Notes: generated by a model not told the origin, from the letters alone. Shown: positions 6,979 to 35,085, counted from the first letter of the stretch. The stretch: DNA of 64,000 bases from Anaerolineaceae bacterium (GCA_002699585.1 PABP01000009.1:419750-483749); one strand, 5' to 3'. Translations and numbers: made by a program.

Positions 6979-9480
6979 ATGACAACGACGCAAATTAATC
7001 TACCCATCACAGGCATGACCTGTGCCATGTGCGAGAAAAATGTCAACCGCGCGTTATCGCGTACCGACGGCGTGGCCGAGGTCCAGCTCAATCTGGCGAC
7101 CGATAAGGCGCTGGTCAACTTTGATAAATCCACGACTGATTTACAGTCGCTCATTAAATCAGTGGAAGCCGCGGGGTATGGTGTGGCGACCGCGTCCATC
7201 GACCTGCCCATCACGGGCATGACCTGCGCCATGTGCGAGAAAAATGTCTCGCGTGCGCTCAATAAGCCCGATGGCGTCATTGACGTGCAGGTCAACCTCG
7301 CGACAGAACGTGCCCATGTCACCTATGTTCCCGGCGTGGTTCGTCGTAGTGACCTGATTAAAGCGGTTGAAGCGGCGGGCTATGGTGTCGTCGATACGGA
7401 AAATGTTGAATTGCCAGAAGATGCCGAAGCTGCTGCCCGTGCTGCTGAAATTGAGCGTCAACGGCGCTTGGTCATCATCGGCGCGATTTTCACCATCCCG
7501 CTGGTGATTCTCAGCATGACGCGTCACTTTATGCACCAGATTCCCATCATCATGCAAACTGTGCCCTGGCTGGCCGACAACGCCTGGCTGTTCATCTTTG
7601 GCGCGATGGCCACCCCGGTCTATGTCATCCTTGGACGCCAGTACATCACCGGCGCGATCAAGTCCGTTCGGAACGGTACGGCTAACATGGACGTGCTGGT
7701 CGCCCTGGGGTCGTCTGCTGCTTATCTGTATGGGCTGGTCGTGTTGCTGGGGATTGTCTTTAGCTTCAGCGATGTTGTCGGCACGGATGACTACTTCGAG
7801 TCCTCGGCGGTGATCCTGACGCTGATTACGCTGGGTAAACTGCTGGAAGCGCGTGCCAAAGGCCACACCAGCGATGCCATCAAGAAGCTGATGGACCTGG
7901 CGCCCAAGAAAGCCATTCTGCTGCGCGATGGCCAGGAGCAGGAAATCGCCGTAGATGATGTCGTTCCCGGTGACCACCTGGTTGTTCGGCCAGGGGCCAA
8001 TGTGCCTGTCGATGCTGTCGTGGTCGAAGGCCGTTCCAGTGTGGATGAAGCCATGCTGACGGGCGAGAGCATGCCGGTCAATAAAACAGTAGGCGCGGAT
8101 GTCATCGGCGGGACGGTCAACAAGCAGGGTCGCCTGATTATCGAAGCCTCGCGTGTTGGCTCGGAGACCGCTCTCGCACAGATTATCCGTTTGGTGGAGC
8201 AGGCCCAGGGGTCGAAGGCACCTATCCAGCGTATCGCGGATCGTGTGTCATCCTACTTTGTGCCAGCCGTGCTCGTCCTGGCCGTGATTACTTTCCTGGG
8301 TTGGTTGCTGATTGGCCAGATTGGCCTGCCGACAGCCACGCTGCACGCTATCGCCGTGCTGGTGATCGCCTGCCCGTGTGCGCTCGGCTTGGCCACCCCG
8401 ACGGCCATCATGGTCGGGATGGGGCGTGGCGCTGAAATGGGCATTCTGTTCCGTAACAGCGAAGCCCTGGAAAATGCCCATCGCCTGAATGCGATTGCCC
8501 TCGACAAAACCGGGACGATCACGCAGGGCCAGCCGCAGGTGACGCAGGTCGTCAGCGAAGGGTTATCCAAAGATGAGCTGCTGCACTTGGCGGCATCGGT
8601 GGAACGTGCCAGTGAGCACCCCTTAGCTGAGGCCATCGTCCAGGCAGCCAAACATCTGACTCTGGCTCAGCCTCAGAAATTTGAGTCGGTCGCAGGCAAC
8701 GGTGTCCAAGCCCTGGTGGAGGATCGCCAGGTTTTGGTCGGCAGCCCGCGTTTCATGCAGGAAAGCCAGATTGACCTGGAGACGCTTGCGAAGACCATCA
8801 CAGGCGTACAGGACCAGGCCCAAACAGCGGTCGTCGTCGCAGTCGATGGCATCGCCCAGGGTGTGATAGGCATCGCCGATACGATCAAAGCCACGTCACG
8901 GCAGGCCATCGCTGATTTGCAGGCGCTCGGTCTGGAAGTGGTCATGCTGACAGGCGACAACGAGAAAACGGCCAAGTCGATTGCGGCCCAGGTGGGCATC
9001 ACCAGCGTCGTCTCGGAAGTGGTACCCGGTGAAAAAGTGCAGGCGGTTCAGCGGTTGCAGACCGATGAACGTCGCGTGGGTATGGTCGGTGATGGCATCA
9101 ACGATGCCCCGGCCCTGGCCCAGGCTGATGTCGGCATCGCCATTGGTACTGGCACCGACATCGCTATTGAAGCCAGCGATGTGACGCTCATGGGTGGCGA
9201 CTTGGCAGGCGTCCCGCGTGCGATTGCCCTCAGCAAGGCGACCATGCGCACCATCTACCAGAATCTGTTCTGGGCGTTTATCTACAACCTCATTCTAGTC
9301 CCGGTAGCGATGTCCGGCAACCTCATCCCGATGTTCGCCGCAGGTGCGATGGCCTTCTCATCAGTCTTCGTTGTGACAAATTCTCTGAGACTGAGAGGTT
9401 CATCGTTACCGCTTGCTCAGGATTCCGCTCCAGATAGTGTTCAATCGTCTCGTGCTGCTTCATCGGCACCTGCGGCTTAG
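6979..9480 (+). CDS. copA: copper-translocating P1B-type ATPase with two N-terminal HMA domains
   Basis: Two [14 protein letters not shown] motifs, TM CPC motif [22 protein letters not shown]. The ORF tail after NSLRLR (about 9405-9480) is encoded antisense to the recombinase gene and is probably not native. Confidence 0.95.
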
Positions 9481-11632
9481 TCACTTTGAAATCCTTTCCT
9501 CGGAGCTGGGTGATCTTATTACGGATTTTCGCCCAGCTTCGATGAGGTAGAGCGGCACACAGTTCGAGCTGTTCTGCGCCTTCATTCAGCATAGATTCCA
9601 GCATTTCGATTTCATCCTCAACCCAACGGGAACCAGCTTTTCTTGGGTGCTTCCATCCCGTTTTCTCCATTCTTTCGACATAATCGGCATATGTTTCCTC
9701 ATCACGTATTGGTTTGGGTGATATGTGAAACGAGCGCTTGCCGACGATCTCATAGGCTTTGATGCGAATTGCGCGCCAATTACGATTGGGTAGGGCCGCT
9801 GATATTTCTTCCTGTGTCGCTTTTTGTTCAATCAGTTCTTGTAGTGTTTCAACTTCCACAGGAAGCCATAGCGTCCATGTCTTTGCCGACCAGGGAAGCA
9901 CAAAATCATCGACGCTTTCATCTCGCCAGTAGATTTCAACATCAGCTACGCGGTATTTCTCTGTTTGTGTAACGACAATTCGTTCGATGAATACTTGCGC
10001 AACTGCTCGTCTCTCGATCAAACCCATTTGATCCCAGTTTTGCAGAACATTCTCTGCCTTCTGCGCTAGCGCGATTAGAGATTCTTGTTGATCGATGCGC
10101 TGCTCTAGATCGTTGAGTTTTCGCTCAAGTCGCGATTTTTCCTGTTCGTGTTCGGCGAATTGGCGTTCAAGTGCTTGTGCCATTGATTGTGACTGCACAT
10201 AGGAGAAGTTATCGAGTAATGCGGTCATCTTCTGTTCGACAGAAGTAAGCTGATGTTGGAGCATCCGACCTTCCTTGTCGAAGTCATCGCCAGCAGATGT
10301 GAGGACATCTTCCCATACCTGATGGTCAAAGGTCGCCTGAAGTTTAGCAAAAAGCATCTCGTTGATGATTCGATCGAAATAATCACTTCGTCTTGACCAT
10401 AGGTGCTGTTGATTATCGGCACTGTCAGAATAGTTGACGGTATAAGCGTACATTTGCATTCCAACCGTCCAGGAGGCGGTCGCGCCACACCAGGTCTCTT
10501 CGTGATAGCTTCCCACCAGTCCGAGATATATCGGTTCGTCGACGTGTCGTTTTTTCTTCTTGGTTGAATGACGCCGCCCTAATCTGGGTGCATAGCTCTC
10601 GTTAGGTGTGCCGTCTAGGTTGTAGGGCGAAATGTAGTTGAATGCGTGATAGAAAAGATCTTCAGTGACAATCGCCGGATGGTTATTCCACTGAACAACG
10701 CGATCTTTGAATACCCAGTGTCCAAGATACACGGCGTTGGACAGCATGTTTTGTAGGGCAAGCGAACCTACCATGTAGATTCCACCACGCTTGAGCATCC
10801 GCATTGGCTTTGCCCAGGAGAAGCCGGGTGGTATTTCACGCATCAGTTCAGGGTTGTCGAAATCGGGAAAGTGCGGGCCATTATCGTGTAGATAACGCAA
10901 CGTCCCACGCTGGTTGCCACCGAGCATCACGAACGTTTCGAATATCTTTACAACAACTTCAGCACATGGTTCAAAAGGCTGATACTTGCGCCAGTTAGGA
11001 TTGGGGATGCCACTTGGTAGGGATTTACGATCATCGACCATGTAACCGAGGTTGATGTTGCCACCCATCCACAACCCCTGCATTAGCATTCGCTCTTTAG
11101 CGGCGTAAAGTCGCCCACGAACATAAGAATTCAGAAAATCGGCGGCTTGCTCCGCTCGCATACGAAATAGTAAGCGATGGTAGGGGCCTTCGTGTTTATC
11201 TGCGAAGTTGTATTTGAAATAGGGAGTCAATACGCGGATATCATTCTTGACACAAGCATCAAGAAATACATTGACTTGAATCTGTGTTTCATCACGGAAC
11301 AGTCGATCTTCTGCCTGCACGGCAACTGCGCCTATCTGACGGGTGAGCATCAGATCGAACAGGCGGCTCATTCCTTCACGTTCGTCGATGCTCTTTGCGC
11401 CGCTCACGCCTTCGTCTTCGTCAATCAGGACGACATCCTCTTGCTGCCATCCAAGTGACATAACATATCGCGGTAGATCAATCTGCTGCATGTCAGTTGA
11501 AATGTTGCCTACCTGCTTCATGGAGGACTGCCGATAGTAGACGGCAATTGAGCGGTCTGTAGGCAGCATCCCAGGTTGCACAGGCGACGAGTCATCGCTG
11601 CGCTGTGGCTTGTACTTCTTAGCGCCAGGCAT
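9323..11632 (-). CDS. large serine recombinase (integrase), 769 aa, island 1
   Basis: N-terminal resolvase motif [11 protein letters not shown] (catalytic Ser), recombinase and zinc-ribbon/coiled-coil regions, C-terminal duplicated module [18 protein letters not shown] / [18 protein letters not shown]. Paralog of 22509-24572. Confidence 0.9.
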
Positions 11633-12824: not shown

Positions 12825-14906
12825 ATGACCGATATTCAAGAAGCACTGCGACAATTCGATCTTGAAGCGCATCGCGAGTATTTCGAGACAGGCGACCGTG
12901 AACGCGCTCAGATGTTGGAACATTTTCCGCTCGAACGCTGGCCGACGATGACGCTTGAGGAATATGCGCTGGGACAAAGCCGCCCAAACGAAGATGTGTA
13001 CTGCTGGTGGCTGGAGTTCGGCACAAAGAATCTCGTCAACATTGGCGGTGCAACTGCCATCAAGCACATGATTTTTTATCACAGCGACGGCTACTGGAAG
13101 CACCTCAGCGCCTATCCCGACAAGGATACAGCCTGGGAAGCCATTCACGGCGAGTTTGTACGGCTGTTTGAACTCGCGGAAGCTCAGAATTGGGAGCAAA
13201 TGGACGCTGAAGACCTGTTCAACCGGGGCAGTCGCACGAAATTGAAATCGCTGTACCTCTATTATCCCCACCACATTATCCCCATCGTGGCTCCGCAGCA
13301 CATGAAACACTTTTTGATGCTGCTTGGTGATGATGAAGCTGATTTGAAGGGGCTTTCATCGATACTTCTGAACCGCCGCTTGCAGCAGAAATTACACACT
13401 TTCCCCGAAGCTCAGCAGTTTTCGACTCGCGAACTGATGCGGTGTTTATATGAGTGGGATGATCCACGCAAGGACGACACCATCACGACCTATTCTCAGA
13501 AGAGGCAGGATGATGTTCCACCCGACGAGCAGAAGCCATCCGATCTTTTTCTATCTATCGCTGATGCGCTCGAACGCAAAGGGCAAGTCATCCTTCATGG
13601 TCCACCGGGGACGGGGAAAACCTACCAAGCGCTGCGTTTTGCTGAATGGTGGTTGGCACGTTCTAACGGACGTACGCTCGATGATCTCACAGCGCGTCAA
13701 ACGCCACGTCGAGTCTGGTGGGTTGTGGCGAATCCCAAACAGTGGCATTGGGATGATCTGTTCACGGATGGCAGCGTTGAGTACAAGTATGGTCGCCTGA
13801 AGCGCAATTATCCACTGGTTCAGCCCGGTGATCTGGTGGTCGGGTATCTGGCCGCACCCGACAAGCGTATCTATGCGCTGGCGCGAGTGACCGAAGGGTT
13901 ACACGGTAAAGACGGTGATCCACGAATCACGCTTGCGCCTGTTCATCGAATCGAAAATGGCCTGACCTATGCGGAACTGACTGAAGATTCAACACTCAAT
14001 CAATCCGAGCCAATCTACAATCGCTGTCAGGGCACGCTGTTTAAGCTGGAAGAACGTGAAGCGGACTACCTGTTGAGTTTGCTCGCCGAGCGAGACCCGA
14101 AAATCGAGGACTACATCGACCAATCCGGGACTCAGGCAGATACGCAGAATCAACTGACGCTGGTCACGTTCCATCCATCGTACAGTTATGAAGACTTCAT
14201 TGAGGGCTTTCGCCCACAAGATACAGGTGAAGGGCTGCGCTTGCGGTTGGCGGACGGTCTTTTCAAAACTGTCTGCGCCACAGCCCGCGCAAACCCGGAA
14301 CGCAAATATCTCGTTCTTGTTGACGAGATCAATCGTGCGAATCTGGCAAAGGTGTTTGGTGAAATCATCACACTGCTGGAGCGCGACAAACGCGGTGTTC
14401 CGGTGGTACTGCCCCAGAGTAAAGAGCCGTTCAGCGTGCCGAAAAACGTTTACATGTTGGGCACGATGAATACATCGGATCGCAGTATTCGACTGATGGA
14501 TGCAGCCCTGCGGCGGCGTTTTGGCTTCATTGAAGTGATGCCCGATCTTACTCTCCTGCGTGGGGCGCAGATCGACGGTGTACTCGATCTCTATGATTTC
14601 CTGATGGTGCTGAACACGCGGGTCAGCCGCACACAGGGACGCGAAAAGCAAATCGGGCATTCGTTCTTCCTGGAAGATGGTCAACCGATCAGCGATGGCT
14701 CGGAATTTGCCCGGCGTTTCCGTCAGGAAGTCCTGCCACTGCTACAAGAATACTGTTATGACGATTATGGGGAACTGGCGGAGTACATCGGGGTCGATCT
14801 GGTCGATGTAGAAAATGCCGTGTTGCGGGCAGACCTGTTGCACGATGATGAGAAACTTGTATCGGCCCTGTCCGAGTTCACGTCAGCACCAGCAGGAACA
14901 GCATAA
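12825..14906 (+). CDS. mcrB: McrB-family GTPase (type IV restriction) with EVE/PUA-like insertion in the GTPase domain
   Basis: Walker A ILHGPPGTGKT, McrB signature FHPSYSYEDFIEGFRP, LVLVDEINRANLAKVFGEIITLLE, MLGTMNTSDRSI. About 150 extra aa between Walker A and the SYSYEDF motif contain WWVVANPKQW...GDLVVGYLAAPDKRIYALARV, which looks EVE-like. Confidence 0.85.
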   Translation: MTDIQEALRQFDLEAHREYFETGDRERAQMLEHFPLERWPTMTLEEYALGQSRPNEDVYCWWLEFGTKNLVNIGGATAIKHMIFYHSDGYWKHLSAYPDKDTAWEAIHGEFVRLFELAEAQNWEQMDAEDLFNRGSRTKLKSLYLYYPHHIIPIVAPQHMKHFLMLLGDDEADLKGLSSILLNRRLQQKLHTFPEAQQFSTRELMRCLYEWDDPRKDDTITTYSQKRQDDVPPDEQKPSDLFLSIADALERKGQVILHGPPGTGKTYQALRFAEWWLARSNGRTLDDLTARQTPRRVWWVVANPKQWHWDDLFTDGSVEYKYGRLKRNYPLVQPGDLVVGYLAAPDKRIYALARVTEGLHGKDGDPRITLAPVHRIENGLTYAELTEDSTLNQSEPIYNRCQGTLFKLEEREADYLLSLLAERDPKIEDYIDQSGTQADTQNQLTLVTFHPSYSYEDFIEGFRPQDTGEGLRLRLADGLFKTVCATARANPERKYLVLVDEINRANLAKVFGEIITLLERDKRGVPVVLPQSKEPFSVPKNVYMLGTMNTSDRSIRLMDAALRRRFGFIEVMPDLTLLRGAQIDGVLDLYDFLMVLNTRVSRTQGREKQIGHSFFLEDGQPISDGSEFARRFRQEVLPLLQEYCYDDYGELAEYIGVDLVDVENAVLRADLLHDDEKLVSALSEFTSAPAGTA

Positions 14907-16180
14907 TGCCGACTGTAGAATTGCAGGAGTGGGGAGATACCTTCCTGCCGAATGTCGTGCTATCCTCAGGTGATCGACGACTGGCACAAACCTTGCAGGG
15001 CGTTGAAATCCGTGAGATGCGCGATGGCTTGTACATCAAAGCATCATCCCGGATTGGTGTTGTGCGATTTGAAGCGTTTGTATTGCGTATCCGCCCGAAG
15101 CTGACCAACATTGATGTCATGCGAATGCTGCTCGTTGCTGGTGGTTTAAATCGCTTAAAACGATACCGTGCGACACGTGATTATGAACTGCGTGATACGA
15201 ATATGTCGTTGTTTGATCTCGTCGCGTTATTGCTGGCAGACACCTGTACGGTTATTGCCAGAGATGGTTTACTGCGCGGCTATGTCGTCGAGGAATATGA
15301 TCTACCAGTTGTGCGTGGTCGGCTGCGGTTCACCGATCAGATTCGACGGCGTTACGGGCAGGTGAACCGGCTGGAGTGTCGCTTTGATGATCATCATGCC
15401 AATGTCGTTGAAAATCGCATTCTGCACACTGCGCTTGCGCTATGCCGTCGCTATGTTCAGCATCCTCACGTTAGAAATCGAATTCAACGGCTGTTGGATA
15501 CTTTCGCCGCTGTCAGTCAACCACTTGACCAGAACTGGCGGACTGTGCAAGCCGATATGGCTTATAACCGGCTCAACTCACGTTACAAAGAAGCACACAC
15601 ACTTGCCTGGATCATCATGGCTGGATTGAACATCGAGGATCTATTGGCAGCAGGCTGTTCACGCGGGTTTGCATTTTTGCTGGATATGAATCCATTATTC
15701 GAGAAGTTCATGGAAATACTTATCCGACACATTTTGCGGAATGACTCCATCGCGGTTCAAGCGCAGTTGACAGCCACGGGTCACATCTGGGATGCTGAAC
15801 GCAATCAAACCTACAAGCGTCTTCGTCCTGATCTATTGCTAACCAATTTGGATTGTCTCAGTTTGGCAATCGATGCCAAGTACAAGCGATACGACGCAAA
15901 GAAGCTACATGAGAGCGACATCTACCAGACGTTCCTGTACACTTATGCTTTTCGCAGTGCCGACGTTGATATGCTGCCATCGGCACTGATTGTGTATCCC
16001 TCCGACATGCCATCTACCGGAATGACCCGTCTGCATATCCGCGACAGTCGAGGTACAGTGCAAGCACGATTGCACGCCTTTGGCGTAGACATTCCCTCGA
16101 TGCTCGATGAACTATTTGATGACACAGTACAAAAATCTACCTCGGTGTTGCGGGAGGCTATCAGGTATCTGCTGACTTAG
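14906..16180 (+). CDS. mcrC: McrC-family PD-(D/E)xK nuclease subunit
   Basis: Start overlaps the mcrB stop (TAATG). C-terminal RPDLLL...IDAKYKRYD nuclease motif. Confidence 0.75.
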   Translation: MPTVELQEWGDTFLPNVVLSSGDRRLAQTLQGVEIREMRDGLYIKASSRIGVVRFEAFVLRIRPKLTNIDVMRMLLVAGGLNRLKRYRATRDYELRDTNMSLFDLVALLLADTCTVIARDGLLRGYVVEEYDLPVVRGRLRFTDQIRRRYGQVNRLECRFDDHHANVVENRILHTALALCRRYVQHPHVRNRIQRLLDTFAAVSQPLDQNWRTVQADMAYNRLNSRYKEAHTLAWIIMAGLNIEDLLAAGCSRGFAFLLDMNPLFEKFMEILIRHILRNDSIAVQAQLTATGHIWDAERNQTYKRLRPDLLLTNLDCLSLAIDAKYKRYDAKKLHESDIYQTFLYTYAFRSADVDMLPSALIVYPSDMPSTGMTRLHIRDSRGTVQARLHAFGVDIPSMLDELFDDTVQKSTSVLREAIRYLLT

Positions 16181-16282
16181 TGAAATAGGTTTAGAGCTAC
16201 AGTTTCAACCTAAGCGAAGCAAAAAAACAGCTGGCGAACGTGCCTGCTCACACTTTCACCAGCCGATGTGAAGTCATCGAAA

Positions 16283-17179
16283 TCAAAAAGAGACAGCCCG
16301 TCCATAGGCTGTCTCAAGGCGTTTCAACGCTGCGCGTCGGTAGCGCGTCACTGTTCGTCGCTCGTTCTCACAGGTGACGAAATGCCGTACTTTTGCTTGT
16401 GTCGATAACGTATACAGTGCGGCTAAGGCCAGCGGACGATCCTCATAGTGCGTCACTACCTCTAGATACGGCGCGATCTCACCGTTATCGAAACGTTCGC
16501 GCCAGGTGCGCCGCTTTTCGGGTTTGTACTCTGCTAGCAGCGTCTGCAACCGCTCCTGGATCTGATCCAACCGTGCATATACCGACGACTGCGGCAGATT
16601 GTGCGCATTGATCGTCTGCAACGGCTTAGCATCCGTCGTGAGGATATAAAGCGCGACTAAACCAGTGATGTCATCAGCATAGTGCTGGGCAATAGTCGTG
16701 ATCGCTCGCTCGATGTCGAACTGAACATCGATCCGGGTAGCGAAGCCTGCCCAGCGTTCTTTAGCATCCCAGAGCTGCAAACGTGAATCATCACCGTGCA
16801 CACCGTATTCATCAACATCCATGCCAGTATTCGCCTGGATGTCGGCGAAAAAATTGTAACGCTCTTGCTTATCGACAATCACCATGCAGCTACAGACTGC
16901 GATCGCTCGCCAGACCGTGCGCGTCAGAGCATCACACGCCAACAGTTCTGGTTCGTCGGTCAGCTTGAGCCAGAGCTTCATCAGCCCGGTCTGCACGCTG
17001 TCGGGAATGTCCTGTCCGAACACGCCGAAGCGCGTGATCTTCTTCGCCATCAGTGGCCCTATACGCTCAGCAATGGCGTCAAAGGTCATTGCACCGCCCC
17101 AACCGGTGGGATAGGTTGCGATTTTCGGAAACGGCTTGATCTGACTACGAATCTTGCTGCGGAATGTTGATTCGGACAT
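16283..17179 (-). CDS. sigma-70/ECF-like protein (region 2 and region 4 like), island 1
   Basis: DIPDSVQTGLMKLWLKL resembles ECF region 2.2. LVALYILTT...LPQSSVYARLDQIQERL resembles region 4. Paralog at 28360-29253. Confidence 0.45.
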   Translation of the reverse strand: MSESTFRSKIRSQIKPFPKIATYPTGWGGAMTFDAIAERIGPLMAKKITRFGVFGQDIPDSVQTGLMKLWLKLTDEPELLACDALTRTVWRAIAVCSCMVIVDKQERYNFFADIQANTGMDVDEYGVHGDDSRLQLWDAKERWAGFATRIDVQFDIERAITTIAQHYADDITGLVALYILTTDAKPLQTINAHNLPQSSVYARLDQIQERLQTLLAEYKPEKRRTWRERFDNGEIAPYLEVVTHYEDRPLALAALYTLSTQAKVRHFVTCENERRTVTRYRRAALKRLETAYGRAVSF

Positions 17180-17370
17180 GACGAAACCTCCTCGTCACAC
17201 TGCTGGAACCGCCAGCACGGTCGAGCACAACGCTCCCTGATGCGGGACAACGCAAAAGGGGGGACCGTCAAGCAATCCGATTGAGGATAGGCGGGTGGTT
17301 CGGCAGTCCCGCCGGAATGGTGGTACTGGCGTACCGACCCGTCGGTGCTTGATGGTGGGTGTCCCTTGCG
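17180..17370 (-). promoter_or_regulatory. conserved structured leader/upstream region of sigma-like gene (homologous to 29254-29490)
   Basis: Shared blocks CATGACGAAACCTCCTCGTCA, GAGCACAACGCTC, GGCGGGTGGTTCGGCAGTCCCGCC (stem with compensatory change in the other copy). Confidence 0.4.
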
Positions 17371-17496
17371 TTGTAAAATTGCCGCGAAACGTTGTGCGAG
17401 GAGGAAGAGCATCCAGATCATTGATCGATCGTGCAGAACGCGAGCAAGTCAACAGAGTACAATGAATGAAGGTATCGGTAGGTGATGTGAGGTTTA

Positions 17497-19975: not shown

Positions 19976-20452
19976 TTACACTTTATTTGACAAAGCGCTC
20001 CACCTGCAAAGATGGTCAGGATAAATCGAGTGCATGAGGCGATGAGAACGCAGCGGCAGGGAGGTGGATAGTGTAGCGAACGTCAAACCCTTCCGATAAT
20101 CGGCTGAGCGGTCACGGACCACGATTTCAACTTCAAGATGGGCTGCAAACCAGGTCTGGATGTCCTCTGCCAGACTACCGTTCACCCGTTCGACCACCCG
20201 CCTCGTTTCCTGATCAATCATCATGCTCCCGTAGCGATGTCCTTTGCGGATTGCCCAGTCATCCAAGCTCACCACCCGTGGACAAGTATCGTTGACAAGC
20301 GCTGTTTGTTTCACGATCCGCAAGATCGTGTCACCACTGGTGATGATCTGAAAACAGCGGAAGATGCGTCGCGCACTCTCTGCGCTGACTTCAAAGCCAA
20401 CCCGACGCATGACCTGCGTCAACCGTTCAGTCCGCCGAGCATAGGGCGACAA
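19976..20452 (-). pseudogene. ISL3-family transposase internal fragment
   Basis: VVSLDDWAIRKGHRYGSMMIDQETRR matches the ISL3 DDE-region motif (VLGVDDFAxRKGHxYxTV). Lacks N- and C-terminal parts. Confidence 0.6.
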
Positions 20453-20695
20453 CCAGTCGGGAAACCGTTCAGCATAAAGTGCGGAAGTTCCAAAATTTCG
20501 GTGATTCGTAAAAAATCAGTTCGCTTTGTGGTATACGAACATTTGTGCTATATACTAGAGAGATAAAGCGTCAGAGAAGGGACGAAGTTATGCCGACAAT
20601 CACCATTGGTGCAAAAGTCGTCGGGCAGAAACGCCCGCTGTTTACAGACTACTGCTTTCCACTGTTACCCGATGTTATGGCATTACCCCGATAAG

Positions 20696-22482
20696 ATGGT
20701 TCTTCCGCACTTTGATGTTGTTGGCGAACCCCTGTTTAGGTTTAAAAAGGTCTATACTGGTAGAAAAACGGGGTGCGTAGAGAATTAAGGGGGATGCTCA
20801 TGTCACTGCCAAAACAAGCGATTGAATCGGTGCCCGAAGACACGGCACAAGTTGCTCGGAAAGCATTTCCAAAGGGCAATCCGTATATCCAGATACGTGA
20901 TCAGTTGGGCACGATTTACACCGATGAGATTTTCGCGGATTTGTATCCGCCTGATGGTCACCCCGCGATCCGTCCCTGGCGACTAGCGCTGGTCACGGTG
21001 ATGCAATTTGCTGAAAATCTGACGGATCGTCAGGCAGCTGACGCAGTACGGGACCGTATCGCCTGGAAGTATGCCCTGAGTTTGTCGTTAACGGATGCCG
21101 GCTTCGACTATTCGGTGCTAAGTGAATTTCGTCAACGCCTGTTGGATCATGATGCTGCACAGCAATTACTCGATGTGATGCTGAAACAATTTTCTGAGCA
21201 GGGTTGGCTGAAAACACGTGGTAAGCAACGCACGGACTCGACGCACATTTTGGCGGCCATTCGACGACTCAACCAACTGGAATTGGTACATGAAACGTTG
21301 CGTCACGCGCTCAATGAATTGGCTGCTGAAGCGCCAGCGTGGCTCAGGCAACGGGTCACTGCGGATTGGTTCGATAGCTACAGCCAGCGCACGAGCAACT
21401 ACCTGCTCCCGAAGAAAGATGCTGAGCGTAAAGCCTGGGGGAACGGGTCGGGCAGGATGGTCTTTATTTGCTGGAGCAGGATTATGCGGGGGGTCATCAT
21501 CCGGAACTGGCGCAATTACCTGCTGTAGAAATGTTGCGACAGGTATGGATGCAGCATTTTTATCAGCTTGAAGAGCAAGTTTGTCTGTGTGAGAAACGCG
21601 ATCAGCCGCCTGCGTCACGCCTGATCACCTTATCTTCTTATGATCCCCAAGCGCGATGTAGCGCCAAGCGCAACGTCACCTGGGACGGCTACAAAGTGCA
21701 TTTGACTGAGACCTGTGATGACGACACACCCAATCTGATTACCAACCATGAAATGCGTCCATCCACCGAACCGGATCATGATGCCACGGAGGTTATTCAT
21801 GACCATCTGGTGGTCAATGGTTACGCACCCAGAGAACATTTTGTGGATCAGGGGTATATGTCGATCGATCATGTGGTTCAACAGGCTCAGGACGGTATTG
21901 ATTTGATGGGTGCGGTTCCCGATGACAATAGCTGGCAGGCTCGCCATGGTGGTTATGATAGTCGCCAATTTGTTGTCGACTGGGACAATGAACAGGCTGT
22001 TTGTCCACAAGGGCACGACAGTTGCAGTTGGTCATTGGCACAAACACGCTCGCAGCGTCCAGTCGTGAAGATCAAGTTTCGACATCGAGATTGTGCCCCA
22101 TGTCCTGCGCTGAACTTATGCGCCAACAATCATGAGAAACGGCGCACCTTGACCATTCTTGCGCCGCAGACTCTTTACGAGGCCCAGCAAGTAGCCCGTC
22201 AACGGCAGCAAACCACGAACTTCAAAACAGCATGTCACGTCCGTGCAGGTGTGGAAGGAACCGTGTCGCAAGCAGCCCATGCTCTTGGCGCACGGCGATC
22301 ACGCTACCGAGGCATGGACAAAACCCATCTCCAGCATCTGGGCGTTGCTGCGGCTATTAATCTGTTACGCATCGTCAATTGGCTGGATGATGTCCCGCCT
22401 TCCAAAACACCTCAATCGCGTTTTGCGCAGCTGGCCGCCTGATGAAGGGTTCGCCAAAAACATCAAAGTGCGGAAGAACCAT
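20696..22482 (+). mobile_element. IS1182-family insertion sequence with 38-bp imperfect terminal inverted repeats (36/38)
   Basis: IRL 20696-20733 ATGGTTCTTCCGCACTTTGATGTTGTTGGCGAACCCCT. IRR 22445-22482 is its reverse complement with 2 mismatches. Confidence 0.8.
20800..22442 (+). pseudogene. IS1182-family DDE transposase split by a frameshift in a G5 run (21437-21441)
   Basis: Frame 1 gives ...KDAERKAWGNG. A frame shifted by 1 nt continues GERVGQDGLYLLEQDYAGG..., so a single ORF is restored by a 1-nt shift at GCCTGGGGGAAC. Confidence 0.7.
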
Positions 22483-22508
22483 TAAATTAGGGTATTGCCA
22501 GATCTAAC

Positions 22509-24572
22509 TTATGCCGAAACCCAATGGGGAGATAGGCATGTATCAGTAGAGGGATAACTCAACATGGGTTGTTGCACAACACCCACCAACACCCCTTCAT
22601 CCTCGGCGGTGGTCGCAGCAGCTTCCGACGCTGCTTCCTCAGAATCTTCCCATTTCGTATCACGCGGATACTTCTTCTCGCCGCTATACGACTTCCACCA
22701 ACCTTTGCCGTAGTGATAGCGCATCCGCTGGGTGAGTGCCCGCCACGGATAGTCCGGGAAGGCTCGCAGGATGTCTATCTGGTCGGCATCAGCGTCGAAC
22801 ATGGCCTTCAGCCGGTCGAGGTCTTCCTCATCCCAGAAGTAGCCGATGCTGCGATGTGTCGTGCTTTCGGTCGTGGTCGAGCCGTCACGCCAGTGGACGA
22901 TGGTGATCTTGGTATGGCGGGTCACCTTCGAAATGTTTGCGTAGGACGCGAACGCCTCGAACAACTCACGCCGTTCCTGACGCGGGACATCCTCCCAGCG
23001 GTCGATGACGGTTTCCAGCACGGGTTTGGCATCGGCAAGGTTGACCTGCTTGCGTTCACCCGACTTCAACCGCGACCATTCCGCCTGCAATGACTCAAGC
23101 TCCAACTCCAGCGAGCGATAACGAGCCTCTGCCCGTTCGACCATCTCTGGATGGCTCAGGGTAGCTAGACTGCTAATGAGGTTGTCTTTCGACGCTTCCG
23201 CCTGACGGATGGCTGCTTCCAGCCGCCGGACTTCGGCATGATCGCCGTCTTCCATCGTCGCCAGGGCTGCCTGCCACGTCGCTTCGTCGATGGTTGTCGC
23301 CTTCAGCCGTTGCAACAACATCCGGTCGATAATGGCATCCACGATGAAGCACTTGATGTTCCAGACATTCGACCGCTCGTACTCGTAAAGTTGATACTGG
23401 TACTTCTCAGCCGATGTGTTCCACACCGTCGCTAAACGGTGATGGGGATCGTCTGGCAGGTCATCCGAGTAGAGCAGGTTGCTGTAGGTCGGTGGGTCTT
23501 CATTGCGGTCGGCTTTGTTGTGCCGCGTCCAGGGACGGTAGGGCACGTAGTCGGCGTTGGGATTGCCATAGAAGTCAGCAGGGGAGATGCGGTTGAAGGC
23601 ATATAGAAAGAGGTCATTCGGGATGATCGCCTCGTGGTTGTGCCACTCGACAATCACGCCCTGGTGAATCCAGTGTCCGATGTAAGCCACATTGATGAGC
23701 ATCCCTTGCAAACCGCTGTAGGACGGCGTGAGACCACCGGTGTGCTTCGAGCGACGCTTGAGGTGATCCGTCACTTTGAATCCATCGGGCATGTCCTCTG
23801 CCGTCAGGTCAGGGAAGTACGGACCGTGCTGCTCGATCTGCCGCCACGTTTGCTTTAGATTGCCCTCGTTCTCACGGAATAACTCGAAGTACGCCAGCAC
23901 CACATCGGCGTAGAGGTCGAAACGGCTGTACTTGCGCCACTCCGGGTTGCGACTGCCATCGGGCAGCTTCTCCCGCATATCAACCATGAAGCCGGGCGTG
24001 ATCTTGCGTCCCGCCCACATGCCACGCTCCTTGCGCCAGTGACGTGCTTTCACTAACCGACCCCGCACATGGTAGTCGATGTAATCGGCGGCACGCTGTG
24101 CCTGGTCGCGGAACATCTGCATGTGATAGCGACCCTGGGTTGGGTGTGCAAAGTCATAGACAAACGTCGGTGTGAGCACCAGCACGTTGTTGCGGCGGCA
24201 GGCATCAATGAAGATGTTCGGCTCGATCTGCGTCATATCGCGGAAGAAGCGATCCATATCCTGAGCCGCCACCAACCCGATCTCGCCGTTCTCGATCTGG
24301 CGATAGAGCAGGGACATGCCCGGACGCTCACTAATCTTCTTCTGTCCGCTGATACCTGCATCCATGTCGATCATGTTGATTTGTTCACGCTGCCAGCCCT
24401 GTGCGATGAGGTGTTCCACCATATCCACCGTTTGCAGGGTAGTGGAGATGTTGCCGATTTGTCCCTCCGAGGACTGCCGGTAGTAGACCGAAACAGGTTT
24501 GCCGAGTGGCAGGGGTTGTGCCCTATACGGATCAATCGACGCGGTTTCAGGGCGTTTGAGTGTTCTGACCAT
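22509..24572 (-). CDS. large serine recombinase (integrase), 687 aa, island 2
   Basis: SVYYRQSSEGQ catalytic motif. Collinear similarity to LSR1 (GNISTxxQ, QGWQxE, GxSGxKxIxEREGMSxL...). AAGGAGG RBS. Confidence 0.9.
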   Translation of the reverse strand: MVRTLKRPETASIDPYRAQPLPLGKPVSVYYRQSSEGQIGNISTTLQTVDMVEHLIAQGWQREQINMIDMDAGISGQKKISERPGMSLLYRQIENGEIGLVAAQDMDRFFRDMTQIEPNIFIDACRRNNVLVLTPTFVYDFAHPTQGRYHMQMFRDQAQRAADYIDYHVRGRLVKARHWRKERGMWAGRKITPGFMVDMREKLPDGSRNPEWRKYSRFDLYADVVLAYFELFRENEGNLKQTWRQIEQHGPYFPDLTAEDMPDGFKVTDHLKRRSKHTGGLTPSYSGLQGMLINVAYIGHWIHQGVIVEWHNHEAIIPNDLFLYAFNRISPADFYGNPNADYVPYRPWTRHNKADRNEDPPTYSNLLYSDDLPDDPHHRLATVWNTSAEKYQYQLYEYERSNVWNIKCFIVDAIIDRMLLQRLKATTIDEATWQAALATMEDGDHAEVRRLEAAIRQAEASKDNLISSLATLSHPEMVERAEARYRSLELELESLQAEWSRLKSGERKQVNLADAKPVLETVIDRWEDVPRQERRELFEAFASYANISKVTRHTKITIVHWRDGSTTTESTTHRSIGYFWDEEDLDRLKAMFDADADQIDILRAFPDYPWRALTQRMRYHYGKGWWKSYSGEKKYPRDTKWEDSEEAASEAAATTAEDEGVLVGVVQQPMLSYPSTDTCLSPHWVSA

Positions 24573-24692
24573 AATTTGTCCTACCTCCTTTCATCTGAAT
24601 GAAAAACGCCCTGCTTATGCGAGTGCCCATACGGTTGCATGGGGTGCAGAAGCAAGGCGCAGAATGTTCTCGGTAATGAGGTACAATGCGTC

Positions 24693-24899
24693 TTAGCCCT
24701 GCGACGTGCTACGATCACTCGCCGGGTCAGGCAGGTCGTCGAGCGGGAACTCGTCGGCCTGTCGTCGATTATGTCCGTTTGACTTGTCCTCATGATACTC
24801 TCTTTTCGGTAGGCGTGCAACGATCCTGAGCAGGGTGCGTGAGATAGTCTCCAGGTTCACCCCCTCGCTGGTCTGTGAGTCGCGGTTCTTGACTTCCAA
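24693..24899 (-). CDS. possible small DNA-binding protein (degenerate Xis-like?)
   Basis: Position is analogous to the Xis-like gene of island 1. Only weak HTH-like segment LETISRTLLRIVARL. Confidence 0.2.
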   Translation of the reverse strand: MEVKNRDSQTSEGVNLETISRTLLRIVARLPKREYHEDKSNGHNRRQADEFPLDDLPDPASDRSTSQG

Positions 24900-24936
24900 T
24901 TGGTTGATCCCTCATCTGTTTTATCTGGTTTTACCC

Positions 24937-25190: not shown

Positions 25191-26699
25191 TCAGGGTTTT
25201 TTCCAGATGGTAATGCTTTTACGCAGGGCTTCTCGTCCAAAACGTCCCATCTGCTGACTGCTGTTCCCCTTGCGCTGCGGCAGAATATAGACCTTCTCAG
25301 GACTGAAACCGAGGTCTTCAGCGATGGACGTGGTAAGCAGGTCGACGGGAATGATCTCACCGCCATAGCGAACATTATCGTTGACGAAAGCGATACGTGC
25401 GTCACATCTTGCCGTTCTGAGGATTTCGGCAAACACAAAGGTTAGTTCGATGAAATACCCCTCAACCATCGGCAGTATACCCCGGTTGTTGATCTCACCC
25501 CGTTCCCAACGGATTTGTAGTGCCTCATTGATCTCTTTGAATACGGGATTGCTCAAAACTGTTTGCAGGATATGCTCAAAACGCTCAGATTGTCCCAGTG
25601 AACGGTAATGAGCACGAAGCTCATCGACTTTCGAGTTATGTTCAACCGTGCAGGATAGTTGCTCCTGGCGAAGTTTACGAATGCCTTCCTCGCCTGCTCC
25701 GAGATAGGCAATCTCAAGGGCGTAGGTGCGCGTATAATCGTAACGATTGCAGTACGGTGGTGATGTGATGACACCCGCAAATTGATCTGCTTCCAGCGTG
25801 GGCAATACCTTCAGACTACTTCCCTGAAGAAGTTGCTGGCTGCTTCCAGTGACTTGCTGCTGTTGGATAATCTCAATGTCCTCGATGACGGTAAACATTG
25901 CGGCAAGTAGGGCTTCCTTAACGGTAGGGAGGTCGCCTTTGTGCATTCCCTTGATGGGTAATTTGCCATTTTCCTCGCGCTTGCGATTGCGAGCCTGCAC
26001 TTTTTCTGCTCGGCGATCCCACCGAAGGTATTGTCCATCTTTGCGCGTGTAGCTGACTTCCTCCAGGATACTGGTTAGAAGCAGGCGAAGCAGTATCTTT
26101 GTTGATCCACTGAAATCGGACTGCTCGACCCAATCCGTGTAGTACATCAATGCGCTTTCCTCTTCTTCAGGAAACGCAGTCTGCGTAATCACAAGATGGG
26201 GAAAAGAACGTGAGGCTTTGCCCGGTTCACTCAATTTGATTTGCTGATAAATGTCGCGCAACTCAGCCACATCATAGTTAAATACATGTGACTTTGCCCG
26301 CCAGGTCAGGTGGCAATTCGGCAGGATTTCGACTCCCACAGCACTAATGCCCCGACTCTTTGCTACCAGTAGTGTTGTGCCTGATCCGTTGAACGGTTCC
26401 AGTAGCGTATCACATGGCTTGATGTCAAACTCATCAATGAGACGATCCACCAGTTCAGCGGAAAAGCCCTCCCTGTATTTGATCCAGCTATGGAGCAGTT
26501 GTCCCTTATTGCCCTGAAAGCTGACCGTTCGGCGGTCAAACTTGTCCGTCTCTTCAAATAAATCCCGGTAACGCTCTTCTAGTGCTAGTCTTGCGGTTTC
26601 ATCGGCGACACCATCATGTGAGAATGAATCACGGACGACAGCCTGGCCTGATGAAAATGGTGTCAACTGGTCATCATTGAATAAGGGTAATTGTTTCAC
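25191..26699 (-). CDS. DNA amino-methyltransferase (N6-A or N4-C), motif I then motif IV
   Basis: LLEPFNGSGTTLLVA (FxGxG, AdoMet binding) and VITSPPYCNRYDY (SPPY catalytic motif). Confidence 0.8.
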   Translation of the reverse strand: MKQLPLFNDDQLTPFSSGQAVVRDSFSHDGVADETARLALEERYRDLFEETDKFDRRTVSFQGNKGQLLHSWIKYREGFSAELVDRLIDEFDIKPCDTLLEPFNGSGTTLLVAKSRGISAVGVEILPNCHLTWRAKSHVFNYDVAELRDIYQQIKLSEPGKASRSFPHLVITQTAFPEEEESALMYYTDWVEQSDFSGSTKILLRLLLTSILEEVSYTRKDGQYLRWDRRAEKVQARNRKREENGKLPIKGMHKGDLPTVKEALLAAMFTVIEDIEIIQQQQVTGSSQQLLQGSSLKVLPTLEADQFAGVITSPPYCNRYDYTRTYALEIAYLGAGEEGIRKLRQEQLSCTVEHNSKVDELRAHYRSLGQSERFEHILQTVLSNPVFKEINEALQIRWERGEINNRGILPMVEGYFIELTFVFAEILRTARCDARIAFVNDNVRYGGEIIPVDLLTTSIAEDLGFSPEKVYILPQRKGNSSQQMGRFGREALRKSITIWKKP

Positions 26700-27931
26700 G
26701 TTGGGTTTCCAGTTTCATCTAACGTCATTTCAAAGAACGCTACCATCTGATTCAAGAAATCCTGCTGCATAGCGGGATCGTTAGCGATTTTTGTCAGATT
26801 ATGGACACTCGCCAACTTTCCCTGTTGTAACCAGAGTGCGGCTTCCTGTGCGACGCGATCTACGAGGATTGTTGCCATAAACGAAAGTTGCGGTATCGGA
26901 CGATGTGTCTTTTCAGCAGCATCGATCATGCGGTTGAACGCCTGCGTCGCTGTCTTCCAATGTTCATCTGAACCAGCCGGGTCTGCACCGCCTTTCAATT
27001 CAGCAGCCCAGGGAAAAGTATCAGACGGTATTTCGGTGATGAGATCGGGGCCAATTCGATAGCGTCGCTTCGTTTCCTCATTATGCCAGTACATCTGACG
27101 ATTGAGCAGCACACTGTTGCCGTTCGTCAGGTTGATCTGTCGATAGACAATCCGTTGGTCTTCGAGATCCGAGAGCAGGGTAGCCACTTCCTGTTCAGAG
27201 CGTCCTTGTAGTTCCACTTTCTGAATCTTCCCGTTATCGTTTTCATCCTCGTCTTCGAGAACGATGCGCCCCTTGACCTTGAAGATGATGCTTTTTAACT
27301 TTTGAAGGCGATGTAAATGGAGCACGATGGGCGAAATCACCGAAATATAGGCCAGTCGTCCAACCTCATTACGCCAACCACCGTCCAGACTCGCGCCAAT
27401 GTTGATGTACACCATTTCCAGATGACGCCGCTGCCCATATAGTCCAGTTTCCATAACCAGTGCGCTGGTAATCTTGTTGAGATGCTGAGCGATGGCCTGA
27501 GCCTTGTCTACACCGAGCGGCATACTGATCTCGTGTTGCGTCGTGTCTAATCCGATGTTGTTCATCACCTTGTTTGAGATCATTGCGACATTACGATAGT
27601 AGAGTACGAGGCGAGGCTCTCGCACGAGATCACCTGGTAAACAGAAATAGTAGGGATACGGAACAGGTGGATCATGGGCATCAAGCGTATCGATTGCAGT
27701 GGGGGAAATACCAGCAGCCTCGGCGCGTTCACGCCAGAGTTCCATATCATATTCTCTACCAAGTTGCTCAATGTCTTGGACAATGCCATCAACATCCAGC
27801 GCCGAGAGGTTCTTCAGGAAAAAGAGACCCCGGCGCACCGAGTTTTCACGAACTGCCTGAAGGATTTCCTCCTGTGTGCTTGCGTATTGGGTGTAGTCGT
27901 CTTGTTGCGATGCATTGGGTTGATCGGTCAT
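26696..27931 (-). CDS. putative restriction endonuclease partner of the methyltransferase (unassigned fold)
   Basis: ATGA start/stop overlap with the MTase gene suggests translational coupling. No recognisable family. Start taken at MTDQPNAS (the ORF extends to 27991). Confidence 0.35.
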   Translation of the reverse strand: MTDQPNASQQDDYTQYASTQEEILQAVRENSVRRGLFFLKNLSALDVDGIVQDIEQLGREYDMELWRERAEAAGISPTAIDTLDAHDPPVPYPYYFCLPGDLVREPRLVLYYRNVAMISNKVMNNIGLDTTQHEISMPLGVDKAQAIAQHLNKITSALVMETGLYGQRRHLEMVYINIGASLDGGWRNEVGRLAYISVISPIVLHLHRLQKLKSIIFKVKGRIVLEDEDENDNGKIQKVELQGRSEQEVATLLSDLEDQRIVYRQINLTNGNSVLLNRQMYWHNEETKRRYRIGPDLITEIPSDTFPWAAELKGGADPAGSDEHWKTATQAFNRMIDAAEKTHRPIPQLSFMATILVDRVAQEAALWLQQGKLASVHNLTKIANDPAMQQDFLNQMVAFFEMTLDETGNPT

Positions 27932-28025
27932 AAATTCTTCTACAAGGGCTGTTGCTGAATAAATAAGGTTCTGTTTCCTATCATAGCACAAAGATTTTCA
28001 AGCATTCGAGGACTTATGCCCCAGC

Positions 28026-28260: not shown

Positions 28261-28359
28261 CGACCGGCTCGAAGCAAAAAAACAGCTGGTGAACGTGCCT
28301 GCTCAACACGCTTACCAGCCGGAGAAACAAAAACGGCTGCCCTTGTCGAGAGCAGCCGT

Positions 28360-29253
28360 CTAAGCGACACAACAGTATGCGATGGCGAGTTTCTTCTTGA
28401 TCTTCTTCCGGTAGTAGAAGATCATCTTGTGTTCTTTCTCGTCGCGGGCGAACTTCTTCACCTTTGCCTTGGTGGTCAGCGTGTAAATCGCAAACAGTGC
28501 CAGTGGACGATCCGAGTAGTGTTCGACCACCTGGAGATACGGTTCGATCTCGCCTGCATCGAGTCGTTCCTGCCAGGTGCGTGGCTGGATCATCGGCTCG
28601 TACTCCTTCAGGATGCGCTGAAGCCGGTGCTTGATCGCTGTCATACGCTCGTAGACCATCGAGTGCGCCAGATTATGCGCTTCCAGTGCCGCCTTCGAGT
28701 CAACACTGGTCGTCAGGATGTAGAGCGCGACCAGTTCCTTAATGTCGTCAGCGTATTCTTCGGCAATGGCGTGGATCGCGTCGGTAATGTCCAGCCGGAA
28801 GTCAATCTTCGTTGCCCACGGTGCCCAGCGTTCCGAGGACTTCTGCCAGGCGGTGGGGGATGAGTAGCCCGGAATGCCGTACTCGTCCACGTCCAGCGCC
28901 AGCTCACCTTCGATATCAGTGAAGGGGAGATACTTCTTGTTTTGCTTCTGAAGCGTGGTGGACTTGCTGATCGCCAACGCACGCCACATCGCCCCAAAGA
29001 TACCGACATCTGCCAGCAAGTTCGGGTCTTCGACCAGTCGCATCCACAGACGCATCAGCCCGGTCTGGATGCTGTCGGGGATATCCTGGCCATAGTTGCC
29101 AAAACGCTTCAGTTTGTTCGCCATCATCGGCGACAGGCACTCTGCGATCTCCTCGAAGGTGAGGTCGCCACCCCAGCCTGTCGGATAGCGCGGCGTGTGC
29201 GGAAATGGCTCGATGGACTCACGGATTTTGCTACGGGTTGTTGCTTCAGACAT
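28360..29253 (-). CDS. sigma-70/ECF-like protein, island 2 paralog
   Basis: Collinear with 16283-17179 (PTGWGG, GQDIPDSxQTGLMxLW, LVALYILTT...). Confidence 0.45.
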   Translation of the reverse strand: MSEATTRSKIRESIEPFPHTPRYPTGWGGDLTFEEIAECLSPMMANKLKRFGNYGQDIPDSIQTGLMRLWMRLVEDPNLLADVGIFGAMWRALAISKSTTLQKQNKKYLPFTDIEGELALDVDEYGIPGYSSPTAWQKSSERWAPWATKIDFRLDITDAIHAIAEEYADDIKELVALYILTTSVDSKAALEAHNLAHSMVYERMTAIKHRLQRILKEYEPMIQPRTWQERLDAGEIEPYLQVVEHYSDRPLALFAIYTLTTKAKVKKFARDEKEHKMIFYYRKKIKKKLAIAYCCVA

Positions 29254-29490: not shown

Positions 29491-29608
29491 GTATGATCGC
29501 CGCGCGGCGGTGTGCGAACTTCAATTATTCTATGCAATAAACTTGTCTGAATTGACCTGGGGATGCTAATATTCATTAAAGGTAAAGTGAGCTAGAAGTA
29601 GGTTTTAG

Positions 29609-32651: not shown

Positions 32652-32664
32652 GTGGTGATCGATC

Positions 32665-35079: not shown

Positions 35080-35085
35080 ATCTGT

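Follow-up and report, generated by a model that had tools for sequence, protein, structure and literature searches.

Two islands in the Anaerolineaceae DNA analysed here (64,000 nucleotides, referred to as the window; positions are counted from its first letter) share a common layout, in which cargo genes and a large serine recombinase gene are accompanied by three conserved parts: (i) a non-coding element, U, (ii) a gene, X, encoding a divergent sigma-70/ECF-like protein, and (iii) a short element, D. U has a covariation-supported fold on the strand opposite X, and sigma-70-type promoter boxes lie in the 3' arm of that fold. Because the folded strand resembles an open promoter aimed at X, our preferred interpretation of U is a promoter for X that works on single-stranded DNA, comparable to Frpo/ssi or sso elements. 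We give this reading a probability of about 45%, and propose that each copy of U, X and D, in that order, forms one three-part module. The features concerned are the following.

Island 1, read on the minus strand: U 17226–17400, X-A 17179–16283, D 16265–16215, McrB-like/McrC 12825–16180 (plus strand), recombinase 11632–9323.
9323–11632, minus strand: large serine recombinase of island 1 (Pfam Resolvase and Recombinase).
12825–16180, plus strand: island 1 cargo, McrB-like/McrC (Pfam AAA_5/EVE, McrBC).
16215–16265, minus strand: D copy A, intrinsic terminator of X; a 12-bp hairpin, then U7, on the gene strand.
16283–17179, minus strand: gene X copy A, 298-aa divergent sigma-70/ECF-like protein (ORF call and comparison).
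17180–17225, minus strand: probable short mRNA leader of X copy A; two hairpins, GCUGGCGGUUCCAGC and then GACGA-GGAGGUU-UCGUC, the second of which displays the Shine-Dalgarno sequence (alignment).
17226–17400, plus strand: U copy A, strand-specific multi-helix fold; helix P1 pairs 17226–17232 with 17390–17396, and a purine-rich tail runs to ~17409 (nhmmer match 17223–17400; consensus fold, covariation).
17349–17379, plus strand: sigma-70-type promoter boxes in the 3' arm of U-A; -35 TTGATG at 17349–17354, 19-nt spacer, -10 TAAAAT at 17374–17379.
Island 2, read on the minus strand: U 29302–29518, X-B 29253–28360, D 28322–28270, BsoBI-like endonuclease and methyltransferase 27991–25191, recombinase 24572–22509.
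22509–24572, minus strand: large serine recombinase of island 2 (Pfam).
25191–27991, minus strand: island 2 cargo, methyltransferase and BsoBI-like endonuclease (Pfam).
28270–28322, minus strand: D copy B, intrinsic terminator of X.
28360–29253, minus strand: gene X copy B, 297 aa (ORF call and comparison).
29254–29301, minus strand: probable short mRNA leader of X copy B (alignment).
29302–29518, plus strand: U copy B; P1 pairs 29302–29308 with 29508–29514 (nhmmer match 29299–29517).
29351–29409, no strand assigned: P3a, a variable arm of U-B; a G+C-rich hairpin between an A-run and a T-run, resembling a bidirectional terminator.
29468–29497, plus strand: promoter boxes in U-B; TTGATG, 18-nt spacer, TATGAT (also found independently by a promoter scan).

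The two X genes are paralogs, as the initial annotation of this DNA had proposed: 150 of 293 aligned residues are identical (51%, E 1e-107). Its description of their products as sigma-70/ECF-like stands as far as fold and distant homology are concerned, and falls short of the Sigma70_r2 Pfam cut-off in an HMM search. X-A gave no match to Sigma70_r2, X-B reached 13.7 bits (cut-off 24, E 0.057), and searches of Pfam, PHROGs, NCBIfam and PADLOC returned no significant family for X; the PDB sequence profile reached ECF sigma factors at E values of only 0.3–0.5. Weak Sigma70_r2 matches were obtained for 7 of 28 family members (best E 7e-4), and four longer homologues (P0062, P0053, P0063 and P0043) exceed the cut-off, at 26.7–32.5 bits. 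The AlphaFold2 model of X (pLDDT 74) contains predicted sigma-2 and sigma-4 domain folds, and a Foldseek search with this model ranked sigma factors at the top, below significance. Given the Foldseek ranking, the longer relatives that pass Sigma70_r2 and the weak matches of other members, it is reasonable to call X sigma-like at the level of (modelled) fold and distant homology. X is a putative sigma factor.

X differs from ECF (group 4) sigma factors in several respects: it is ~300 aa long with a third helical domain, it scores below the Pfam cut-offs, and no anti-sigma gene lies nearby. Its family is also small (37 clusters at 90% identity, 156 representatives at 50%), has no Pfam domain, and is confined to Anaerolineae/Chloroflexota metagenome bins. 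The comparison drew on 42 related loci, and no target promoter motif for X was identified in the elements.

Immediately downstream of X lies D. The ~50-bp block that the initial annotation had noted after both stop codons is indeed conserved (16215–16265 versus 28270–28321, 90% identity over 52 nt), and its hairpin and T-run recur in ~30 loci. Stem length ranges from 8 to 19 bp with compensatory changes, while the U-run and the basal stem pairs (GGCUGG/CCAGCC) persist. On the gene strand D directly follows the X stop codon, and it separates X from the cargo; it is a Rho-independent terminator of X, and marks the point at which variable cargo starts. A small RNA and a recombination site were both considered for D and rejected in favour of a plain terminator, since only the hairpin and T-run are kept while stem length varies.

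The regions upstream of X are homologous too, as had been suggested: those of the two islands share two blocks of 73–76% identity, with a 42-nt insertion between the blocks in island 2, and both contain the motif CATGACGAAACCTCCTCGTCA. Further homologues exist. U and D blocks flank X in ~30 loci of other Anaerolineae/Chloroflexota assemblies, and nucleotide identity of the upstream block reaches 85% where the proteins are only 35% identical; judged from sequence comparison, this conservation is far beyond chance. U is 175–220 nt long, and nhmmer recovered every copy and no additional ones. It adjoins X in 31 of the 32 loci that have upstream sequence; in the exception, L001, homology begins at an internal copy of GTTGTGC. 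Conservation stops abruptly at the outer edge of U, CTCGCAC. In two pairs of loci (L017/L019 and L018/L026) U is identical within the pair and the flanks differ from ~7 nt beyond. We also considered that U might be an invertible segment between inverted 8-mers (GCACAACG); this was ruled out because all of the ~31 loci show one orientation.

A consensus structure was obtained by aligning 21 non-redundant copies of U with MAFFT (alignment A5) and folding the plus strand with RNAalifold. It comprises 44 pairs in seven helices, with 97.5% of cells paired and both sides changed in 20 of the 44 pairs. Double changes occupy 103 cells against 30 in shuffles, none of 500 shuffles reaches the observed values, and slid controls are 28–51% paired. 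The fold is branched, with a three-way junction and an apical hairpin that is long and conserved; U is most conserved in apical helices 5 and 6. The apical loops are mostly GNA triloops, 14 of 21 being C(GCA)G, C(GAA)G or G(GAA)C, and such GAA/GCA triloops form very stable DNA mini-hairpins. One arm varies: the G+C-rich P3a variant, with covarying stems and retained A and T runs, is present in 11 of the 21 sequences, and U-A has a short hairpin (17277–17288) in its place. A further helix at the outer end, in which the purine tail would pair with the antisense of the Shine-Dalgarno region, was left out of the fold because it is weak on both strands. Neither U nor D has a match in Rfam, either at the gathering score across the whole window or with E values up to 10 at both loci.

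These data change the structural claim made in the initial annotation, which had described a compensatory hairpin (GGCGG/CCGCC in island 1, GCGGA/TCCGC in island 2) and taken it as a sign of conserved structure rather than drift. The varying columns of that stem in alignment A5, 175 and 192, combine as GC 7, AC 5, GT 5 and AT 3 (n = 21) and do not covary with each other; rather, each covaries with a different partner (175:248, GC 12/AU 7; 192:213, CG 13/UA 8). A conserved, covarying structure is thus present, but it is larger than the proposed stem, differently paired, and on the other strand.

Since Watson-Crick covariation is equal on both strands, the strand to which the fold belongs is decided by wobble pairs. 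Among the consensus pairs of U, 101 cells are G·U/G·T when the plus strand is considered; for the gene strand, these pairs yield 122 mismatches and 2 wobbles. Alternations of the plus-strand type are seen at 189:216, 178:245 and 287:298 (U·G with U-A) and at 180:242 (G-C with G·U). Consensus energy is -40.2 kcal/mol for the plus strand of the window and -25.07 for the gene strand (RNAalifold), and on the gene strand the apical helices fragment into pieces of 2–4 bp. All 21 sequences fold better on the plus strand, by ~20 kcal/mol with RNA parameters, and U is more stable there by 9–11 kcal/mol with DNA parameters (U-A: -49.1 kcal/mol, z -5.8, versus -40.5 for the other strand; U-B: -61.8 kcal/mol, z -5.9, versus -51.0). 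The G+T content of the plus strand is high, and once composition is controlled the strands differ in z-score by only about 1–1.6. Because the fold belongs to the strand opposite X, U is not an ordinary mRNA leader. The suggestion that the upstream regions are cis-regulatory leaders accordingly shrinks to the last ~45 nt before the ATG, the only leader-like part, the main structure being on the strand antisense to X. These ~45 nt, with two small hairpins and G·U pairs on the gene strand, fit a short mRNA leader; helix 266–269:281–284 has gene-strand G·U (GU 15) and compensatory UA 9/CG 6. No sigma-70-like promoter for X was found on the gene strand.

The plus strand of U does contain one. At a single aligned position, 17 of the 21 sequences match TTGACA-N16–19-TATAAT at 9 or more of 12 bases and the remaining four score 8/12; the sequences are related, so that 17/21 does not stand for 17 independent events. 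No other match of at least 9/12 occurs in the U region on either strand, where shuffles lead one to expect ~0.95 per strand in total. The columns of the -10 box read T in 19/21, A in 21/21, any base, A in 18/21, A in 15/21 and T in 21/21, which is the known conservation profile of the sigma-70 -10 hexamer. The position of the boxes within the fold is also specific. The -35 box (TTGAYR) is base-paired within helix 3, and the spacer of 17–19 nt is mostly paired. In the -10 box (TANNNT), T-12 (column 282) pairs with column 82 to close helix 2, columns 283–286 are unpaired, and the bases from A-11 on fall within an internal loop that faces a variable stretch of 13–15 nt; T-7 is predicted to pair in a small hairpin, P7, beyond which helix P1 provides a downstream duplex. 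X, on the minus strand and directly 5' of the base of the hairpin, has the folded strand as its template. Because the boxes sit on the 3' arm, a transcript started there would continue into X. In duplex DNA the boxes would read outward, and four of five inspected neighbouring genes point outward.

A distant clade retains part of this arrangement. X homologues of ~22% identity are located behind an RNase H gene and preceded by a diverged U-like block, in which the abrupt start is retained and the equivalent strand folds better. At the homologous helix edge there is again a -10-like hexamer (TATCAT, TACAAT), without a good -35 box at a distance of 17–19 nt.

The genomic context is that of a mobile element. 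Eight other loci (L003, L009, L013, L014, L022, L023, L034 and L037) have the same order, X–cargo–recombinase, with 0.5–9.6 kb of cargo between X and the recombinase. Most of the cargo that was inspected belongs to restriction-modification or to other defence systems (PstI-like, type IIG, methyltransferases plus a PLD nuclease, Gabija-like). Two loci, L039 and L040, carry U and X with no recombinase within 10 kb. In L039, U-X follows a block of ParM-like, HU-like and DUF927 genes, and U adjoins backbone genes; the DUF927 gene and three copies of the iteron-like repeat TGTGAAGGTTGTGAAACCTGTGAA lie directly beside U. The same gene block is present in the window at 39.7–46.3 kb, beside an FtsK/HerA/TrwB-like ATPase gene, and the repeats recur 3' of the DUF927 gene of the window. 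Because U-X also occurs without a recombinase, beside a backbone block that is found in the window, the islands appear to belong to a larger integrative element of plasmid- or ICE-like type. No match to U or X was found in IMG/VR viral contigs or in PLSDB (blastn of U against 72,556 plasmids), so a phage or known-plasmid origin is not supported; a literature search for links between serine recombinases and non-coding RNAs returned nothing relevant. The block upstream of the recombinase gene was examined as a possible second strand-specific element and rejected: its two strands do not differ in this respect (35 versus 33 G·U), and it resembles an ordinary leader plus a terminator.

Under the single-stranded-DNA promoter reading, folding of U would be confined to the X template strand in single-stranded form. 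From there, host RNA polymerase would transcribe the 5' arm of U, exit at the hairpin base, and enter the X leader and gene. Expression of X would be limited to periods when the mobile element exists as a single strand, following transfer or in the course of rolling-circle replication, and U would fall silent once the DNA is duplex; U might also prime complementary-strand synthesis. We infer that the folded molecule is DNA rather than RNA, and that polymerase uses it. The single-stranded stage through which the element would pass is an assumption, since no relaxase, oriT or rolling-circle Rep protein was recognised; a multi-hairpin region at 44270–44600 is a candidate oriT. The FtsK/HerA/TrwB-like ATPase, DUF927 protein and ParM-like protein, which point to a plasmid- or ICE-like backbone, are context that counts in favour of the promoter reading. 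Several observations count against it. G·U/G·T pairs make up 11% of paired cells and wobble pair 193:212 is invariant, which is at least as typical of RNA as of DNA, and the conserved apical helices 5 and 6 have no role in a simple promoter model. The predicted pairing of T-7 in P7, the distant clade without a good -35 box, the outward reading in duplex DNA, the small strand difference in z-score under composition control, the relatedness of the 21 sequences and the lack of similarity to PLSDB plasmids weigh in the same direction.

Known systems provide precedents. The minus-strand origin of filamentous phages is a comparable single-stranded structure that recruits RNA polymerase. In Frpo, -35 and -10 boxes are rebuilt when the DNA folds into a stem-loop; early genes are expressed from the transferred strand until second-strand synthesis converts the promoter to duplex and shuts it off (PMC9849209, PMC11541004). 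U resembles the Frpo/ssi elements of F and ColIb-P9 in that it is a non-coding segment of a few hundred nt, folds on one strand with -35 and -10 boxes, lies on the template of the downstream gene, and is part of a mobile element. It differs in that (i) it shares no sequence similarity with them (the PLSDB search above), (ii) its host is a member of the Anaerolineae rather than an enterobacterium, (iii) its fold is branched and supported by covariation, (iv) the gene downstream is sigma-like rather than ssb, psiB or anti-defence, and (v) its element has no known oriT or relaxase. The sso elements, for their part, work in one orientation and only as single strands, on which they attract RNA polymerase (PMC4595007). 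Like the sso of rolling-circle plasmids and sso1 of ICEBs1, U is an orientation-specific multi-hairpin structure, with single-strand activity and RNA polymerase recruitment in its case predicted; unlike them, it is fixed in front of X, whereas sso elements make a short primer and are untied to a particular gene. For the variable arm, a parallel exists in Tn916, in which an insulating terminator near the edge of the element blocks read-in transcription from the host (PMC11658703). The P3a arm, in the 11 copies that have it, resembles this terminator and in duplex DNA would terminate read-in transcription toward X; it differs in being at the same time a structural arm of the U fold, replaced by a short hairpin in other copies.

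The same fold could belong to an RNA. The main rival explanation, less likely though by no means negligible, is that U is the gene for a new structured non-coding RNA on the plus strand, divergent from or antisense to X, which would act either as a 6S-like open-promoter mimic binding RNA polymerase or as a partner or regulator of X. U is like 6S RNA in its length (~180–220 nt), closing helix, large internal bubble and open-promoter-like shape; it is unlike 6S RNA in having real -35 and -10 boxes, a branched fold and no promoter or terminator of its own. Indeed, the only promoter-like site on the plus strand is inside the 3' arm, with none upstream of the structure, no terminator follows U, and in 11 of 21 sequences a terminator-like hairpin and T-run would fall in the middle of the RNA. 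No Rfam model matches, that of 6S included, at E values up to 10, the loops are GNA triloops rather than GNRA or UNCG tetraloops, and the sigma-70 profile of the -10 columns would be left as a coincidence. For the more specific idea, a stable plus-strand RNA paired with X as an open-promoter mimic or as a guide or tether for RNA polymerase, the odds are long. An RNA on the other strand, namely a long 5' leader of the X mRNA with riboswitch-like or attenuator-type cis-regulation, is very improbable. The location of U upstream of X agrees with it, as do the embedded terminator-like hairpin and U-run of the same 11 sequences, a CU-rich outer end that could pair with the Shine-Dalgarno region, and a few terminal pairs with gene-strand G·U (36:223 and 49:210). 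These last have alternative Watson-Crick partners one register away, and core helices read on the gene strand carry A·C mismatches (e.g., 99:118, AC in 21/21; 95:122, CA in 12) at a consensus energy of -25 versus -40 kcal/mol. The leader has no Rfam match either, and no conserved promoter precedes U, because conservation stops at CTCGCAC.

Two further explanations keep U as DNA. That it is mainly a single-strand origin or priming site, at which RNA polymerase or the DUF927 primase-helicase makes a primer and X expression is secondary, is a minor possibility. The evidence for a folded single strand and for a promoter applies to it equally, sso function rests on structure more than on sequence (PMC4595007), and both the TGTGAAGGTTGTGAAACCTGTGAA repeats and DUF927 gene beside U in L039, with the same repeats in the window, and the pairing of X in distant relatives with RNase H, an enzyme that processes RNA primers, agree with it. 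The fixed distance and orientation of U relative to X in 31 of 32 loci point instead to X expression as the selected function; U-X is fixed also in L040, which has no replication genes nearby, and no rolling-circle Rep was found. A priming role is in any case compatible with the single-stranded-DNA promoter reading, since Frpo does both. The initial annotation had offered another role, in which the conserved blocks are the element-derived halves of attachment sites for the large serine recombinases. Such a role would account for the sharp outer edge of U, with flanks diverging ~7 nt beyond it in L017/L019 and L018/L026, and for the start of L001 homology at the internal GTTGTGC. We nevertheless find it scarcely credible: half-sites of 20–25 bp cannot explain 44 covarying pairs across 175–220 nt, D is a terminator internal to the island, U-X is found abutting other backbone genes with no recombinase within 10 kb, and the two recombinases of the window are only 34% identical although their U ends are near-identical.

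To our knowledge, experimental evidence for single-stranded-DNA promoters comes from a few enterobacterial plasmids, other cases being predictions from sequence similarity. If the promoter reading of U is correct, U would represent a family outside the proteobacteria, with a fold supported by covariation and a -10 box held in a pre-formed bubble. Because U is wired to a sigma-like factor, a simple circuit is suggested: the single-stranded state, at entry or during replication, would trigger a transcription programme private to these recombinase-borne elements, with their cargo of restriction and other defence genes. If the folded molecule is instead RNA, U would define an RNA family that is new, well supported and not represented in Rfam, with tight linkage to a family of uncharacterised sigma-like proteins; and if that RNA is paired with X, the two would form a new class of sigma-associated RNA that reprograms host transcription for the element.

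Among the related loci that carry X (the sigma-70/ECF-like gene), the sole X copy without U, the structured block upstream of X, lies in L001 (1209-1508). Homology between L001 and the other loci starts exactly at GTTGTGCTC. Helix P1, the closing helix of the U fold, is formed by this 8-mer, and GTTGTGCTC is its internal copy; a recombination breakpoint may lie at GTTGTGCTC in L001. When L032-L034 are compared with window positions 17180-17420, nucleotide identity across U is 85%, while X protein identity is only 35%. The disparity would fit very strong constraint on U or, alternatively, the exchange of U between lineages. At window 17401-17409, and at the corresponding site in most loci, 8-10 purine-rich nt (plus-strand sequence GAGAGRGRA) form a tail to U, beyond which conservation stops. 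The tail is similar to the Shine-Dalgarno region of X, and complementary to the antisense of that region.

Distant X homologues with about 22% identity occur in an operon with an RNase H gene of 133 aa (L041 7507-8993; L042 2149-3615). A diverged, U-like block precedes the operon in both loci. Among the genes nearby in L041 are those for an ImmA-like peptidase that carries an HTH domain, for a DUF4411 protein, and for a TIR protein. Other relatives are longer, at 484-669 aa (P0043, P0047, P0048, P0051, P0053, P0058). Their X-like region is C-terminal, the X profile matches several stretches of each, and some have an additional Sigma70_r2 match in the N-terminal part; these longer proteins may have arisen by tandem duplication of sigma-like modules.

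The large serine recombinase genes have features of their own. A conserved small ORF of ~80 aa lies 5' of the island-2-type recombinases (window 24573-24900, minus strand; L003, L009, L013, L014, L022, L023, L034, L037). Between this ORF and the recombinase start codon is a conserved, structured leader, which shows no strand asymmetry and ends, immediately 5' of the start codon, in a terminator-like hairpin. The island-1 recombinase does not have the small ORF and leader block. Recombinase ORFs point outward from the element, and each runs into the 3' end of a host gene encoded on the opposite strand (window 9323-9480; L003, L022):

Host genes overlapped by recombinase ORFs
Window 9323-9480, opposite strand: heavy-metal P-type ATPase
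Downstream of the L003 and L022 recombinases, opposite strand: helicase-like

These overlaps suggest that the element inserts into gene ends. Near the island-2 recombinase, an IS element and a transposase fragment lie side by side:

IS element and transposase fragment near island 2
Window 20678-22500: IS element with a DUF772 + DDE_Tnp_1_6 transposase
Window 19976-20452: ISL3-type transposase fragment, beside the IS element

The IS element has inverted ends of 54 bp (20678-20731 and 22447-22500), and lies 9 nt away from where the island-2 recombinase gene stops.

Past island 2 (window 29609-46252), the genes fall into three groups:

Gene groups beyond island 2
Group 1, plus strand: Hsp70, SPFH/Band-7, DnaJ-zinc-ribbon (two copies), VTT
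Group 2: FtsK/HerA/TrwB-like ATPase, 973 aa
Group 3, minus strand: DUF927, HU-like, ParM-like genes

An iteron-like triple repeat, TGTGAC-NN-TTGTGAC-NN-CTGTGAC, was found at several positions:

Iteron-like repeats
Window 39637-39660 and about 39708-39734: adjoining the DUF927 gene
L039 9504-9750: three direct plus inverted copies, in the DUF927-to-U interval
L006, L012, L023, L037: degenerate copies after D (the X terminator block), at the D/cargo junction

The repeat may be a replication-origin or regulator binding site. In addition, a run of ~330 nt (window 44270-44600, minus strand) contains at least eight hairpins, with the HU-like gene on one side and a gene for a 139-aa protein on the other. 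A folding scan identified this run as the most stable fold within window 8-48 kb, and it is kept, with compensatory changes, in two further loci (L039 4700-4990; L003 10776-10900). Its possible roles are those of an oriT, a priming site, or a backbone non-coding RNA.

The DUF927/HU-like/ParM-like block is found again in two other loci: it adjoins U-X in L039, whereas in L003 it follows the recombinase. Therefore, both islands seem to be parts of a single composite integrative element of roughly 37 kb.
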